Source: Minisyncoccota bacterium
GTDB lineage: Bacteria > Patescibacteriota > Minisyncoccia > Phycocordibacterales > UBA9973
NCBI GenBank assembly: GCA_041665925.1
Contig: JBAYHW010000001.1
Coordinates: forward strand, 11,282 to 75,281
Direction of reading: 5' to 3'
Length of the DNA stretch: 64,000 nt
Positions within the stretch are counted from its first letter, which is position 1, and each line of letters opens with the position of its first letter. The notes below the pieces were generated by a model. The model was not told the DNA's origin and did no database searches. It was given only the letters and a program-made list of their open reading frames with translations. The position numbers and the translations under genes were made by a program. Shown here piece after piece: positions 33,721 to 39,429 of the stretch.

Positions 33721-34293
33721 TTAATCAAGCTGGTGCCCAATTATATTTTCTGGATCCTTTTTATTAAAGAGGACTTCGCTATTCTCTAAAAGATAAACAT
33801 TTTTAATCCCGGAAGAAATTATTTTTTCCCAACAATTTTTGCAACACCACCAATGCCCCCACATATATAGATCTGCTTCCTTGGGGTCATTCCCTTTTTC
33901 AATTGCATCATTAATAGCCCTAGACTCTCCGTGATTTTTCGGATGACAACCCTCACACAATTCATAACCTTCCCCTGTTGGAATATTTTGTCTGACCCTT
34001 TCGCATCCATGCTGTTCATGATAATTGCTGCCGTTGGCCCCGATCCCGATAACTTTCCCAGCTTTCACAATTATACTCGTGTTCGGCATTTCTTTATCTA
34101 GGGAATTAACTCGAGCATAATCTCTTGCTTGTGTCATATATAAATTTGAAAGTGGCACGTATAGGATTTCGCGCCCTTTTGGTATATATGGACTTGGATA
34201 TTTAGGATTTTTTTGCATATGTGTTCTGGGTTTCCATAAGAATTGATTTATTATATACTCTACTATATGACCACCTTCGACACAATCTATCAA
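33721..34293 (-). CDS. dCMP deaminase-like (CMP/dCMP deaminase zinc-binding); true start probably an internal Met (34218 or 34137)
   Basis: 'HGESRAINDAI' (HxE) and 'CCKNC' (C..C) zinc ligands. Confidence 0.6.
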   Translation of the reverse strand: MIDCVEGGHIVEYIINQFLWKPRTHMQKNPKYPSPYIPKGREILYVPLSNLYMTQARDYARVNSLDKEMPNTSIIVKAGKVIGIGANGSNYHEQHGCERVRQNIPTGEGYELCEGCHPKNHGESRAINDAIEKGNDPKEADLYMWGHWWCCKNCWEKIISSGIKNVYLLENSEVLFNKKDPENIIGHQLD

Positions 34294-35100
34294 AACATTA
34301 TTAAGAAAATAATGGATGAAGGCATAGAGGAGTTAAACGAACGCACGGGGCATAAGACCAAAGCTTTGCCTGGAGTTACATTTTCTTTTGATATAGAAAA
34401 GGATGGTTTCCCTGTTTTAACGCTCCGTAAACAACCCCTAAAATCCCCCATCGCTGAACAAGTCTGGTTTATCCAAGGAGAAAAAGATGCGACATTTCTG
34501 CGAAAATTTACAAAAATGTGGGACCCTTTTCTAGAAGAGGACGGCACACTGTCTTCGGCCTACGGCTGGCGCTGGCGACACCACTTCGGGCGTGATCAAT
34601 TGGGAAAAGCCATAGAACTTTTAGAGAAGGAGCCTAGCTCAAGACATGGAGTAGTTATAACTTGGGACCCTAGGGATGATGGCTATGGTGGAACTCCAAA
34701 GAAAAATGTTCCCTGCCCATACGCTTACACAATAAATATAATTGGTGGACGACTAAATATGCACAACATCGTGCGGTCAAACGACATGATACTTGGTTGC
34801 CCTTTTGACACTTTTGGTTTTGCGCTTTTGCAGTGCATGATTGCTGAACGGCTCGGTGTTCGTCCAGGAATTTATACTCATTCAATCTCCAACGCGCATA
34901 TTTATGACAATCACTATGAAGGAGCTAAGGAAATTATACAAAGAACTAATAATCATAAAAATATAGAGCTGCATTTACCGAAAGATGCATTTAAGAGAGC
35001 TGAGCAAAAAGACGAAGCCTTGGTAGGAGAAATCCTCGCAGATTTACAAGCTCAATACAATCCATTACCACCAATCGTAGGATTAGAAATAGCTTTATAA
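34243..35100 (+). CDS. thymidylate synthase (ThyA)-family enzyme with Asp at the Asn177-equivalent specificity site; candidate dCMP methylase/hydroxymethylase
   Basis: aligns to ThyA: 'RTGHKT', 'EQVWFIQGE', 'MWDPF', 'AYGWRW', catalytic Cys158 'VPCP', 'RSND', but 'LGCPFD' (codon 34807..34809) instead of 'LGLPFN'. Confidence 0.75.
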   Translation: MIYYILYYMTTFDTIYQNIIKKIMDEGIEELNERTGHKTKALPGVTFSFDIEKDGFPVLTLRKQPLKSPIAEQVWFIQGEKDATFLRKFTKMWDPFLEEDGTLSSAYGWRWRHHFGRDQLGKAIELLEKEPSSRHGVVITWDPRDDGYGGTPKKNVPCPYAYTINIIGGRLNMHNIVRSNDMILGCPFDTFGFALLQCMIAERLGVRPGIYTHSISNAHIYDNHYEGAKEIIQRTNNHKNIELHLPKDAFKRAEQKDEALVGEILADLQAQYNPLPPIVGLEIAL

Positions 35101-35686: not shown

Positions 35687-36892
35687 TTATTCAACTGGTA
35701 CGATTTCAATAGTCCCCACCCCTTTATCTGAATAATCTAATACTATATGTTTCCCATCAGGAAACCATCGTGGATTGAGAGCCGGCCCTTTTTCTATTCC
35801 TGTTTCTACTTTTTTATTTCCACTTCCGTCCGCGTTCACAACATAAATATCGGAAGCGGTAACGTTGTATCCATCTTCTTCGGTAATATAATAAGCAATT
35901 CGGGAACTATCAAAAGACCATGAAGGAAAACTACCCGAGGCTACTTGAATTTTATTGCTACCGTCAATATTCATAACCATAATTTTTTGTGGTCCTGACC
36001 AAAAAGAAGTATACACAACTTTCTTTTTATCAGGAGATAAAACTGGAAATACGCCATTATCGTTGTCTGGTATAAGTTGTTTCACAACCCCATTAAAAGT
36101 TATTGATTTAATCACACCATGACTAAGAGATTTATCCCGATATTCACCATATACCAACGCCATTTCATCACTACTTCTAATTACTTTTTTACCATTAATA
36201 TCCACAATCTTTAATTTATTGTCATCATTCTTATCAATATATGCAATTTCATTTATAGAAATCCATCGAGGAAATGCAACACGTTCACTATTTGGTGTAA
36301 GTTCTTTCGAATAATTACCGTCTTGATTCACCACCTTAAGAACGTGAGTAGTGCTGGAAAATTTTGTTTGCGTTGGAATTTCTTTTTGCGCAATATAAAA
36401 AACATATCTATCGTTGTAATGAGTATCGGTGATAGGAGACCACTCAAAACTATCGCCAGTTCCAATAAGATCATCTTTTATCAATTGTTTCATCTCAGTA
36501 CCATCAACATTGATAACCCATAAACCTTTTTCTTCTGGTTTTCCTTCGCCTCGTTTCCAAAAGACAATTTTAGAACCATCAGCTGAAACTTTGGGATAAA
36601 AATCCGGTGAAAATTGTTTAGAAATAAGACCAATGGCAACTTTTAAAATTTTGTCTGGTGTAGTAATTTTATCCAGGGATGTGGTAGTAATAGGAGGTGT
36701 GTCAATTTTATCCCCTTCTTGTACGTCATTTGGTGTCTGTGTCTGTTGTGTTTCAGAAGGGATTATTGATTTCTTGGATAAAACAAAATATCCGCCAATG
36801 GCTACTAGAGCAACAACCACTATTATTAAGCTGACATTTGTAAAACCTTTTTGATTGTTTTTCATAGTGTTATGATTATACCCCCCCCACAA
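35687..36892 (-). CDS. membrane-anchored TolB-like beta-propeller (PD40 repeats) protein
   Basis: N-terminal TM, repeated ~40-aa propeller-like segments. Confidence 0.4.
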   Translation of the reverse strand: MWGGYNHNTMKNNQKGFTNVSLIIVVVALVAIGGYFVLSKKSIIPSETQQTQTPNDVQEGDKIDTPPITTTSLDKITTPDKILKVAIGLISKQFSPDFYPKVSADGSKIVFWKRGEGKPEEKGLWVINVDGTEMKQLIKDDLIGTGDSFEWSPITDTHYNDRYVFYIAQKEIPTQTKFSSTTHVLKVVNQDGNYSKELTPNSERVAFPRWISINEIAYIDKNDDNKLKIVDINGKKVIRSSDEMALVYGEYRDKSLSHGVIKSITFNGVVKQLIPDNDNGVFPVLSPDKKKVVYTSFWSGPQKIMVMNIDGSNKIQVASGSFPSWSFDSSRIAYYITEEDGYNVTASDIYVVNADGSGNKKVETGIEKGPALNPRWFPDGKHIVLDYSDKGVGTIEIVPVE

Positions 36893-36925: not shown

Positions 36926-37255
36926 CTAAGGATCTTCGTCTGTTCTCACTCGGATAAAAATATCCTTCCCGTCGGGAGACTTTTCTTTTTTATATTTTCT
37001 TTTTTTATTTATTTCAATTTTTCGAGTTAATTCTTTTTCTAAATCAAAACCAAGAATTTCTGCCATTCCAAGAAGGAATATTGCCACATCAGCAAATTCT
37101 TCTGCCACTCCATCTTGCCCTTTATTAAATTTAGAGAATGCTTCCGAGAGTTCTTCGTGAGCTCGGCAGAACTCCAGAGCCACATCGGTAGTATTGAACC
37201 CGTGTTCAAGCTTATTTCTCATTACCTCCTTCTGTAGTTCTTTTAAATCAACCAT
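36926..37255 (-). CDS. MazG-like nucleoside triphosphate pyrophosphohydrolase
   Basis: 'LQKEV..N...G' and 'EExADVAIFLLGMAEILGFDLE' MazG EExxE/D motif. Confidence 0.6.
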   Translation of the reverse strand: MVDLKELQKEVMRNKLEHGFNTTDVALEFCRAHEELSEAFSKFNKGQDGVAEEFADVAIFLLGMAEILGFDLEKELTRKIEINKKRKYKKEKSPDGKDIFIRVRTDEDP

Positions 37256-37265
37256 ATATTTGTAT

Positions 37266-37661
37266 TTAATTTTTAGTGATAATTTTTGTAATACCTAAAG
37301 TAGTTATCATTTTAGCACAAGCCTGACAAGGAGCTTTCTCGCAGTAAATCGTGGCTCCTTCAAGTGGTATCCCGAAACTTAAGGCTTGAGTTATGGCATT
37401 ATGTTCAGCATGGATAGTTCTGGCACAAGAATTTAAGTCTTGGTCACTTTTCACATCATGTCCTACCTCATCACAGTGTGGCAACCCAGAAACTGACCCT
37501 AGATACCCTGTAGATAAAATTCGATTGTTGATAGTAATGACACAACCTTTCCCGCCCCTATCACACGTCGCCCTAGCTCCTACTCCGTCTACTATACCTA
37601 AAAAATACTCATCCCACGAAGGCCTCGAACGCTTGGTTCCTTTTGTAACAACCTTTTTCAC
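37266..37661 (-). CDS. CMP/dCMP (cytidine) deaminase family protein
   Basis: 'HAEHNAI' and 'PCQACAKMI'. Confidence 0.65.
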   Translation of the reverse strand: MKKVVTKGTKRSRPSWDEYFLGIVDGVGARATCDRGGKGCVITINNRILSTGYLGSVSGLPHCDEVGHDVKSDQDLNSCARTIHAEHNAITQALSFGIPLEGATIYCEKAPCQACAKMITTLGITKIITKN

Positions 37662-37679: not shown

Positions 37680-38780
37680 CTAATCTTTCTTTCCAAGCGC
37701 CTTTAATACTTTCAAATACATAGATTCAACTATTTTTCTTTGAGCGGACCCTGTGGTTACATAGTGGTCCAAGCCAGGCGCCGCGTTAATTTCAATAATA
37801 TAATATCTACAATCTTTAGAATTTTTAGTTATATCCCCTTTCGTGACCATTATATCTACCCCCGCAATACGTAACCCCATGTCTTTTGTAAGACTCATAG
37901 CAATTTTCTTAAAACTTGTATGTAAACTGTGTGTCACATCAACTGCATCACCCCCAGTAGAAAGGTTGGCATTATCTAATAAAAATATCTTTTGTCCTTT
38001 TGGTAAAACAGTATTAAAAGAACAACCCTGACTCTGTAGTTTGATTTTTATTCTCCTATCATTAAAATTTATTTTTGTATCCCGCCCACTCGATATAAAA
38101 TCTCGTTGCTTTTGTTTAAGAATAGCTAAGATAGAACGTTTCCCATCCCCCGTCACTGAAAGAGCAACCCGTTCGTAAGCAGAAATAATTTCTCCGTCCA
38201 AAACAACAACACGATAGTCCCTCCCTGGTAAATATTTTTCTAACAATGCGACTCTTTCTCCTTTAAATATTTCCAGTAAACCATTTTTAAGTTCTGTGGC
38301 GCTAGAAGCTAGACACACCCCCGAGCCCTGACTCTTGCTGTTGGGCTTAATAATAACAGGGTAACCTAATTTTTTTGCATATTTTTTTGCATATGAAATA
38401 TTTCGATTACTTTTTACTACTTTAGCCCAATCGTCTTTAAATATAGTTACCCCGGGAGCGACAGGGTATCCTCTTTTTTTCATAAAAAATTTTGCATAAT
38501 CTTTATCACGTGCGATATCCGAAGAAGCTATATGGTTCAAATCTAAAGAATACATTCGCAGAGATCTAACCACTCCATTTTTGTAAATTATTTGAGCTGC
38601 GATGCCCCACTCTGGCTCCACCATAGCCCTCGCGCCCACCTTAGGCGCAAGCTTAGTAACAAGTTCCGTTAAGTATGGCACCCCTGATTTTTTCAGGTTT
38701 TTAGTTTTTCTTTTCTTTTGCATTTTTGTTAAGGTGTAGACCAGTAAAAAGTGGTGCGTATATATCGTGTTGTGGATCAA
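37680..38780 (-). CDS. ATP-grasp family ligase (RimK/GshB-like); start likely at an internal Met (38723 or 38624)
   Basis: 'GYPVIIKPNSKSQGSGV' ATP-grasp core; the ORF-track start overlaps the upstream gene by 80 nt. Confidence 0.5.
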   Translation of the reverse strand: MIHNTIYTHHFLLVYTLTKMQKKRKTKNLKKSGVPYLTELVTKLAPKVGARAMVEPEWGIAAQIIYKNGVVRSLRMYSLDLNHIASSDIARDKDYAKFFMKKRGYPVAPGVTIFKDDWAKVVKSNRNISYAKKYAKKLGYPVIIKPNSKSQGSGVCLASSATELKNGLLEIFKGERVALLEKYLPGRDYRVVVLDGEIISAYERVALSVTGDGKRSILAILKQKQRDFISSGRDTKINFNDRRIKIKLQSQGCSFNTVLPKGQKIFLLDNANLSTGGDAVDVTHSLHTSFKKIAMSLTKDMGLRIAGVDIMVTKGDITKNSKDCRYYIIEINAAPGLDHYVTTGSAQRKIVESMYLKVLKALGKKD

Positions 38781-39429
38781 TCATTATTTCCCTTCGCTTA
38801 ACTTTGTTAGAAAAAATAACTGGAGCATCTGTTATAACAGCAAGCGGCTGTTGTTCGTCGCCTTCACCCATACACAAGACTGCAGTTGTGGCTAGGCTAT
38901 CTACAACATTTGTTTTTGATATTTTCATGATTCTCCCAAAAATATCTTTAGTGCCTACATAATTTCGTATACCATGGAAACCAGCAAATCCTAAAGCTAT
39001 TCCAAGGGCTCCAGCACGAAGAGGCATAAGCCTTGAATCAGTTATGACAACTCCGAGGTTTTTTAGTCGAAACTTTTGCATTATTTTTTTTCGCAAAAAT
39101 TCTGCATTTTTAAAACTATCTTTTGGTAGAAGAATTAATTTCCCTCCAGCATTGGATTCATCAATACCCGCAGAGGCTAGAACCATTCCATCTTTGATTG
39201 TCATCCAGACAACTTTGGTTTTAATGGTAAAATCACTCTCTTCTTTTATTAAATCTATTTTTTGTTTTTCATTTACAAATTCCGCCGTTCGGCCTTCAGC
39301 TAAAGCCACTATTTTTGAAGTAACAACTAAAACAGATTTCTCAGGGAGTTTTTTAACATATTTCAAAATAAAAGAGAGTAAATCTTCTCGCTCCTTAAAC
39401 ACTCTAGTTTTAATGGCTTTAATTTTCAT
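38701..39429 (-). CDS. CofE/FbiB-like (F420-0:gamma-glutamyl ligase family) protein
   Basis: 'VLVVTSKIVALAEGR' CofE-like N-terminal motif. Confidence 0.45.
   Translation of the reverse strand: MKIKAIKTRVFKEREDLLSFILKYVKKLPEKSVLVVTSKIVALAEGRTAEFVNEKQKIDLIKEESDFTIKTKVVWMTIKDGMVLASAGIDESNAGGKLILLPKDSFKNAEFLRKKIMQKFRLKNLGVVITDSRLMPLRAGALGIALGFAGFHGIRNYVGTKDIFGRIMKISKTNVVDSLATTAVLCMGEGDEQQPLAVITDAPVIFSNKVKRREIMIDPQHDIYAPLFTGLHLNKNAKEKKN

Follow-up and report, generated by a model that had tools for sequence, protein, structure and literature searches.

To our knowledge, all known cells make deoxythymidine monophosphate (dTMP) from deoxyuridine monophosphate (dUMP), by means of either ThyA or ThyX. 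Enzymes of the same fold as ThyA that act on deoxycytidine monophosphate (dCMP) have been described from phages. In the DNA of Xanthomonas phage Xp12, 5-methylcytosine (5mC) replaces all C, and 5-methyldeoxycytidine (5mdC) was made in vivo by the Xp12 homolog of thymidylate synthase (TS) and by five of seven metagenomic homologs with Asp at the pyrimidine-specificity residue (bioRxiv 10.1101/2024.12.05.627091). The change of this residue from Asn to Asp in the TS of E. coli (N177D) or L. casei (N229D) shifts the substrate from dUMP to dCMP, with 5-methyl-dCMP as the product, and in phage metagenomes no residues tell cytosine-modified contigs from unmodified ones better than those at positions 177 and 147 (PMC8670742). 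The hydroxymethylases, among them the dCMP hydroxymethylase (dCH, gp42) of phage T4, have Asp or Glu three residues before the catalytic Cys (position -3), have lost the TS tail, carry Val for Trp83, and release tetrahydrofolate (THF), not dihydrofolate (DHF) (PMC6400193). Here we describe a chromosomal gene of a Minisyncoccota bacterium, found in 64,000 nucleotides of contig JBAYHW010000001.1 (assembly GCA_041665925.1, positions 11,282 to 75,281; hereafter, the window). It encodes an Asp-type ThyA-fold enzyme (the window TS), which is predicted to be a dCMP 5-methyltransferase and may belong to a thymidylate pathway of the Candidate Phyla Radiation (CPR).

The preliminary description of this DNA had aligned the open reading frame (ORF) with ThyA over its whole length, which is borne out by the match to Thymidylat_synt (PF00303; 191.7 bits, E 1.8e-56, residues 15-257) and by superposition of an AlphaFold model (pLDDT 91.7), whose TM score to E. 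coli TS is 0.83-0.87 at full length, over about 280 columns. HMMER alignment with TS of solved structure places RSNDMILGCPFD opposite RSADIFLGVPFN and VPCPY opposite PPCH, and a MAFFT alignment with E. coli ThyA, T4 dCH (in a sequence identical to PDB 1B49) and the Xp12 enzyme gives the same register. A structure-guided alignment, proposed earlier as a check, leaves the Asp at the specificity site, and a register error there is excluded by HMMER, MAFFT and structure superposition alike.

Residues of the window TS are numbered in the 277-residue protein that starts at ATG 34267. Three changes relative to E. coli ThyA had been noticed in the preliminary description, Asn177 to Asp (Asp181), His147 to Pro (Pro151) and Gln165 to Val (Val169), and all three were confirmed by the alignments, the Asp also by direct reading of its codon; they replace the residues that mark a canonical dUMP-TS, in which Asn177 reads the O4/N3-H edge of uracil and His147 and Gln165 are part of the network around O4 and Asn177. 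The alignments add Arg127 to His (His127), Leu143 to Asn (Asn147) and Trp83 to Phe (Phe88). The catalytic Cys, Glu58, Tyr94, Arg166, Ser167, Asp169, His207 and Tyr209 are kept, both in the window TS and in all 80 related loci described below. The C-terminal tail is present as well (G-L-E-I-A-L here, G-L-x-I-[AV]-L in the family) and resembles the tail of the E. coli enzyme.

Conservation was assessed in 80 loci from Paceibacteria/Parcubacteria, one genome per species, with 58-91% TS identity; they include Nomura-, Vogel-, Taylor-, Kaiser-, Adler- and Doudnabacteria, and a narrow pattern scan brings the TS locus to at least 163 species in all. Asp is found at position 177 in each of the 120 closest homologs and in 80/80 species loci, where it is encoded by GAT (53) or GAC (27). 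Position 147 is Pro in 77 of the 80 loci, position 165 is Val, Ile or Leu, and Asn stands at -3 from the catalytic Cys in every locus. Asn177, though a single transition away from Asp, does not occur among 200 sequences of 58-100% identity. Because the turnover between GAT and GAC is synonymous while Asn is only one transition away, selection appears to uphold the Asp, which, judged by these alignments, is an invariant family trait under purifying selection. The preliminary description had cautioned that genuine TS of related lineages might often have the same Asp. It is indeed lineage-wide, but this bears out the caution in form only, the proteins concerned being putative TS, and we read the distribution as a sign that the whole lineage is unusual rather than that the residue is meaningless. 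Outside the main Asp clade, the cluster representatives P0266, P0267, P0231, P0235 and P0254 have Asp177 in an otherwise canonical TS, with Arg127, His or Cys at 147, Gln165 and Phe176 kept; these look like independent, recent switches from Asn to Asp.

Sequence searches place the window TS next to the Xp12 enzyme. When 1.84 billion cluster representatives were searched exhaustively with phmmer, nearly all of the best 150 matches were Asp-type, mostly with Pro at 147, and the first Asn-type (C-H-Q...F-N) representative scored 149 bits, compared with 171 bits for the one nearest Xp12. BLASTP gave 182 bits (35% identity) to the Xp12 enzyme, 114 bits (30%) to E. coli ThyA and 34 bits to T4 dCH, and the best matches in an annotated phage collection were Xp12 and its relatives. 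In a rough neighbor-joining tree, the CPR family falls within a large Asp clade together with the Xp12 group; T4 dCH is basal in this clade, and canonical TS lies outside it. By these comparisons, the closest characterized relative of the window TS is the Xp12 dCMP methyltransferase, with which it also shares the KNVPCP motif and Phe at the Trp83 position. The acidic residue that hydroxymethylases have at -3 is absent, with Asn147 in its place, and the tail that they have lost is present, the model aligning with TS at full length. Together with the conserved dihydrofolate reductase (DHFR) gene nearby, the Asn at -3, the Phe at position 83 and the tail argue for a reductive methyl transfer that yields DHF. 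This suggests that the window TS is a dCMP-acting reductive methyltransferase of the Xp12 type. Of the two activities considered in the preliminary description, dCMP methylase and dCMP hydroxymethylase, the first is thus favored by the sequence and the second is not.

On its 5' side, the TS gene is adjoined by the gene for an atypical zinc deaminase, DEAM_A. The preliminary description had reported a dCMP deaminase immediately upstream, which is right as to the adjacency, but the gene lies divergently on the opposite strand and its product is an unusual member of the family. Its match to PF00383 is weak (40 bits), and a search of PDB sequences returned nothing at E<0.1. The AlphaFold model (pLDDT 89) is closest in fold to the bifunctional dCMP/dCTP deaminase of PBCV-1, followed by the dCMP deaminases of T4, cyanophage S-TIM5 and human. 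An invariant zinc site (H96-G-E98 ... C126-x-x-C129) is accompanied by invariant H67, C72, C88 and C91, which probably form a second zinc site. From the modeled fold, DEAM_A would be a mononucleotide deaminase, yet of a distinct family. All named homologs (n=1045 homologs in total) come from CPR bacteria, and one entry, "MAG: deaminase [Candidatus Paceibacterota bacterium]" on a 238-kb contig, is 100% identical to the DEAM_A of the window. DEAM_A is adjacent and divergent to TS in 77 of the 80 loci, and two of the misses are contig ends. In phage metagenomes, 70% of the deaminases on cytosine-modified contigs lie next to a TS, as opposed to 6% of those on unmodified contigs, and most of the TS homologs beside these deaminases are predicted to act on dCMP (bioRxiv 10.1101/2024.12.05.627091). 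In about 22 loci, for example L021:9033-9461 (-), a 142-residue protein with no Pfam or NCBIfam match is encoded just past the deaminase; it is absent from the window, and on visual inspection its sequence looks similar to nucleoside 2-deoxyribosyltransferase/DNPH1-like proteins.

The canonical folA that had been seen to follow the TS gene is confirmed by its DHFR_1 match. As had also been argued, a reductase at this place would fit a methyl transfer that yields DHF, and DHFR is in fact conserved beside TS, within 3 kb downstream in 71-75 of the 80 loci. The same cluster contains serine hydroxymethyltransferase (SHMT) in 46 and dTMP kinase in 44 of the 80 loci.

A further position near DHFR is filled by one of two genes. 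In the 63 loci whose sequence extends 3 kb or more beyond TS on its downstream side, it contains a MazG-like gene in 27 (the window among them), a Dcd-like gene in 35, both in none and neither in one. The MazG-like protein of the window finds only weak matches in PDB and no similarity in the Xp12 PRA-PH protein; it is predicted to hydrolyze dCTP to dCMP, or to convert 5-methyl-dCTP back into its monophosphate. The Dcd-like protein, which the window lacks (examples in relatives are L082:5852-6487 (+), L051:10850-11482 and L167:9335-9973 (-)), scores above the NCBIfam cutoff for dCTP deaminase. However, in all 44 sequences examined the catalytic Glu138 is replaced by Pro and His121 by Asp, while the triphosphate-binding Arg and Ser residues and Asp128 are kept. 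Because of these two replacements, we do not consider it a deaminase, and as proof that dUMP is supplied from dCTP by way of dUTP it was rejected. It is likely, from these residues, to be a mis-annotated dUTPase-fold dNTP pyrophosphatase that is interchangeable in function with the MazG-like enzyme. It may also have the role of an archaeal-type dUTPase, though canonical Dut is present too. A tblastn search of phages with the Dcd-like protein returned Dcd/dUTPases of archaeal viruses, which have no bearing on this point.

These genes suggest the following pathway. dCTP would be hydrolyzed to dCMP by the MazG-like pyrophosphatase in this organism, and by the Glu-less Dcd-like dUTPase-fold protein in other Paceibacteria. 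The Asp-type TS would then use Cys150 and methylene-THF to convert dCMP to 5-methyl-dCMP and DHF, and methylene-THF would be regenerated by DHFR, plus SHMT in relatives. DEAM_A is predicted to convert 5-methyl-dCMP to dTMP, which dTMP kinase (Tmk) would phosphorylate to dTDP. We infer the substrate at every step of this route, and set it beside the observed fold, residues, phylogenetic placement, gene linkage and fusions. That dTMP is made across Paceibacteria by such a housekeeping route, "methylate first, deaminate second", from dCMP via 5-methyl-dCMP, seems to us rather probable. The preliminary description had put forward this order of steps alongside a synthesis of modified dC nucleotides for DNA; the former is the better supported, because the deaminase is kept in 77 of the 80 loci and because dTMP kinase, SHMT and DHFR share the cluster. 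The frequent presence of dTMP kinase and SHMT also speaks for thymidylate as the end product. For Xp12-like phages the same step order has been proposed, with deamination at the level of the triphosphate for the one characterized enzyme (bioRxiv 10.1101/2024.12.05.627091). We found no CPR or cellular thymidylate route with a dCMP methylase in the literature open to our search; the enzyme type is known from phages, and what appears to be new is that a whole bacterial class would make its thymidylate with it as a housekeeping function.

Phages provide parallels for the association of these genes. The gene order in Xp12 is PRA-PH protein, TS, deaminase, DHFR, and the trio of PRA-PH, TS and deaminase is present in 17-20 of 22 Xp12-like viral contigs. 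There are also natural fusions of an Asp-type TS, with a deaminase of the dCMP family (P0137) and with PRA-PH (P0161). A Dcd-like gene with the same Glu-to-Pro signature adjoins the P0137 fusion, and the two probably sit in a phage; used as a query, P0137 found only itself and one partial relative. In another cluster representative, P0148, an Asp-type TS is fused to an HNH endonuclease domain.

The main alternative is an ordinary dUMP thymidylate synthase, to which deaminase and Dut feed dUMP and in which Asp, Pro and Val are a quirk left by an Asp-type ancestor. We hold this to be unlikely. Every neighbor fits the textbook pathway, the catalytic residues of TS chemistry and the C-terminal tail are all kept, and CPR papers name the gene thyA. 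Several further observations weigh against the route from dCMP. The window TS passes the NCBIfam thymidylate synthase model TIGR03284 (128.9 compared with a cutoff of 108.35), and a protonated Asp could in principle form a hydrogen bond to uracil. Canonical trimeric Dut with all five motifs, present in the extended cluster in about 23 of the 80 loci, makes dUMP, and a second deaminase of the window, the ComEB-like DEAM_B, would do so too; this dUMP has no obvious sink if the TS refuses it. With ThyX of T. maritima and ThyA of E. coli as tblastn queries, no second TS was found in the window and 86 loci, but this search space of 1.4 Mb is centered on the cluster and therefore biased to its neighborhood, and the genomes may hold another TS elsewhere. 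BLASTP gave no significant similarity between DEAM_A and the Xp12 deaminase (E 0.81), and the one phage partner deaminase that has been characterized uses 5-methyl-dCTP rather than the monophosphate (bioRxiv 10.1101/2024.12.05.627091).

Against an ordinary synthase stands the complete absence of Asn from the 200 sequences, even though Asn would serve dUMP better and is so easily reached by mutation. Moreover, the co-varying changes H147P and Q165V are those tied to cytosine-modified phage DNA (PMC8670742), and the family is nested in an Asp clade together with dCMP-modifying enzymes. The more specific ThyA equivalog models (PRK01827, NCBIfam) all score the protein far under their cutoffs, for example 152 compared with 327. 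The deaminase would be dispensable given Dut or a Dcd-like source of dUMP, yet it is kept in nearly every locus, and the Glu-less Dcd-like neighbor cannot turn dCTP into dUTP.

A second alternative is that the cluster supplies 5-methyl-dCTP for modified DNA, in which genomic C is largely or wholly 5mC, while part of the pool is deaminated to T. The set of pyrophosphatase, Asp-type TS, deaminase and DHFR is found in Xp12 too, with its 5mC for all C, and DEAM_B resembles the Xp12 deaminase (27% identity, E 4e-12). In addition, three phage-like IMG/VR contigs (L087:5616-6834, L088 and L089:1173-3056) encode an Asp-type TS 53-69% identical to that of the window. They carry genes for a RecE-type exonuclease, an RNA ligase and a DNA polymerase exonuclease subunit, and have a DEAM_A-like gene beside TS in two of the three cases, a MazG-like gene in two and DHFR in none. 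These contigs probably come from phages that infect CPR bacteria and have the module in common with them; the pair of TS and DEAM_A therefore appears to move between phage and host. Nevertheless, we judge a supply of 5-methyl-dCTP for DNA quite improbable, and a shade less credible still that Paceibacteria DNA has 5mC for most or all C through a chromosomal Xp12-like pathway, with thymidylate drawn from the same pool. The cluster is a core chromosomal locus by genes for ribosomal proteins, EF-G and SecY across the whole bacterial class, and besides one small pyrophosphatase it bears no sign of dCTP exclusion. The kinase linked to it is dTMP kinase rather than a promiscuous dNMP kinase, and it was an enzyme of the latter kind, T4 gp1, that was co-expressed to route 5mdCMP into the dNTPs and DNA of E. 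coli (bioRxiv 10.1101/2024.12.05.627091).

A hydroxymethylase like T4 gp42, with 5-hydroxymethyl-dCMP as the product, has the Asp specificity residue and the RSND motif in its favor but is hardly credible and was rejected, as the window TS has Asn rather than Asp or Glu at -3, where the D145N mutation kills T4 dCH (PMC6400193), has Phe rather than Val at the Trp83 position and a TS-type tail, is far closer to Xp12 than to T4 dCH (182 compared with 34 bits), and is linked to a DHFR that would be pointless for an enzyme releasing THF, not DHF.

The features of the locus are collected in the table below. The preliminary description had started the TS gene at a TTG (34243, in a mechanical ORF of 34243..35100), and we take the ATG at 34267 instead, because homologs are 277 residues long and because a conserved -10-like box precedes this ATG. 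The 120 closest homologs are each about 277 residues long and begin with MTTFD, and most of 75 related intergenic regions compared have a TATAAT-like box 6-8 nt before the TS ATG, which across lineages often reads TGTATAAT or TGTATACT. Homolog lengths and box position make ATG 34267 almost certainly the true start, and the position of the box implies a transcript that would be leaderless or nearly so.

Table. Features of the thymidylate locus and other features discussed in the text (positions in the window; aa, amino acids).
Feature	Coordinates	Strand	Basis
ORF, 921 aa	2495..5260	-	no Pfam match at E<1e-5
ORF, 511 aa	22383..23918	-	no Pfam match at E<1e-5
DEAM_A, atypical zinc deaminase, dCMP-deaminase fold, 165 aa	33721..34218	-	PF00383, AlphaFold model
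Divergent intergenic region, 48 bp	34219..34266	.	between DEAM_A and TS genes
-10-like TATACT box, 7 nt before ATG 34267	34254..34259		sequence, related intergenic regions
Asp-type ThyA-fold enzyme, 277 aa, predicted dCMP 5-methyltransferase	34267..35100	+	Pfam, homologs, alignments, AlphaFold model
N-V-P-C-P motif (Asn147, Cys150, Pro151)	34705..34719	+	read directly, alignments
Catalytic Cys150, codon TGC	34714..34716	+	read directly
Asp181, codon GAC (E. coli ThyA Asn177, pyrimidine-specificity residue)	34807..34809	+	read directly
FolA, dihydrofolate reductase, 163 aa	35176..35667	+	DHFR_1 200 bits, full length
PD40/beta-propeller protein, N-terminal membrane anchor	35687..36892	-	
MazG-like all-alpha NTP pyrophosphohydrolase, predicted, 109 aa	36926..37255	-	PF12643 30 bits; phrog_3301 50.6 bits
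DEAM_B, ComEB/phage-type dCMP deaminase, 131 aa	37266..37661	-	PF00383 65.7 bits; phrog_174 111.7 bits
RimK-like ATP-grasp ligase	37680..38780	-	
CofE-like (F420-0:gamma-glutamyl ligase family)	38701..39429	-	
ORF, 462 aa	46800..48188	-	no Pfam match at E<1e-5
ORF, 567 aa	55797..57500	-	no Pfam match at E<1e-5

In the window, the gene for a PD40/beta-propeller protein lies between those for DHFR and the MazG-like protein, which adjoin each other in most relatives. A gap of 10 bp separates the DEAM_B gene from the MazG-like gene that follows it in the same orientation, and the two look like a two-gene operon (36926..37661, -). As DEAM_B occurs near the cluster in only 4 of the 80 loci, it is an accessory of the sub-lineage to which the window belongs. 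Genes for a RimK-like ligase and a CofE-like protein adjoin the thymidylate cluster both here and in 15-18 of the 80 related loci; their products may form a non-canonical pair for folate polyglutamylation in organisms that depend on salvaged folate. The rest of the window contains genes for ribosomal proteins, EF-G, MurB and type IV pili as well as five tRNAs. By its content it resembles chromosomal DNA of a Nomurabacteria/Paceibacterota (CPR) bacterium, and the named homologs of the window TS come from MAGs of this kind. Ten large window ORFs searched against Pfam yielded no further genes of nucleotide metabolism, and four large ORFs have no Pfam match.

If the proposed route is real, it would be a third cellular route to thymidylate, from dCMP via 5-methyl-dCMP, in a large bacterial class, with a step order hitherto proposed for a few phages only. 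Thousands of annotations as "thymidylate synthase" or "deoxycytidylate deaminase", which CPR metabolic reconstructions take at face value, would then need revising. The route would also point to an exchange of a nucleotide-modification module from phage to cell or from cell to phage, and would be a source of new deaminases and pyrophosphatases specific for 5-methyl-dC, like those now applied in methylome sequencing. One would then have to ask how, or whether, these cells keep 5-methyl-dCTP out of DNA. Should Paceibacteria instead replace C by 5mC, they would provide the first case of wholesale pre-replicative base substitution in a cellular organism.

How, then, does the locus compare with the known systems? 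In T4, a dedicated pyrophosphatase (dCTPase gp56) supplies dCMP from dCTP. T4 gp42 has the Asp specificity residue and the RSND motif in common with the window TS, but it differs in its Asp145 at -3, in the lack of a C-terminal tail and in its chemistry, since it hydroxymethylates and releases THF; the similarity amounts to 34 bits. The N177D and N229D mutants have the same exchange of Asn for Asp, but are laboratory point mutants of dUMP enzymes, whereas the CPR family is natural, deeply diverged and has further co-adapted changes. With the canonical ThyA-FolA cycle (EC 2.1.1.45), the locus shares the fold, the catalytic residues, the tail, the thyA-folA order and the predicted formation of DHF. 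It is set apart from this cycle by the six substitutions in the TS, by the obligate deaminase neighbor and by dCMP as the predicted substrate.

The Xp12 module is the most similar system. It has the same Asp177, Pro147, KNVPCP motif, Phe at Trp83 and C-terminal tail in the TS, and likewise combines a DHFR-linked reductive methylase with a deaminase and an NTP pyrophosphatase in cis; in phages of this type, dT nucleotides have been proposed to come from deamination of 5-methyl-dC (bioRxiv 10.1101/2024.12.05.627091). In contrast to the phage module, with whose TS it shares 35% identity, the CPR locus is cellular and chromosomal, is found in at least 163 species, and is linked to Tmk and SHMT. 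The partner enzymes differ as well: DEAM_A, whose sequence has no detectable similarity to that of the Xp12 deaminase, belongs to a family confined to CPR bacteria, and where Xp12 has PRA-PH as its pyrophosphatase, these bacteria have a MazG-like (PF12643) or a Dcd-like protein. Finally, the phage uses its module to replace C by 5mC, whereas the end product of the CPR locus is likely to be dTMP.

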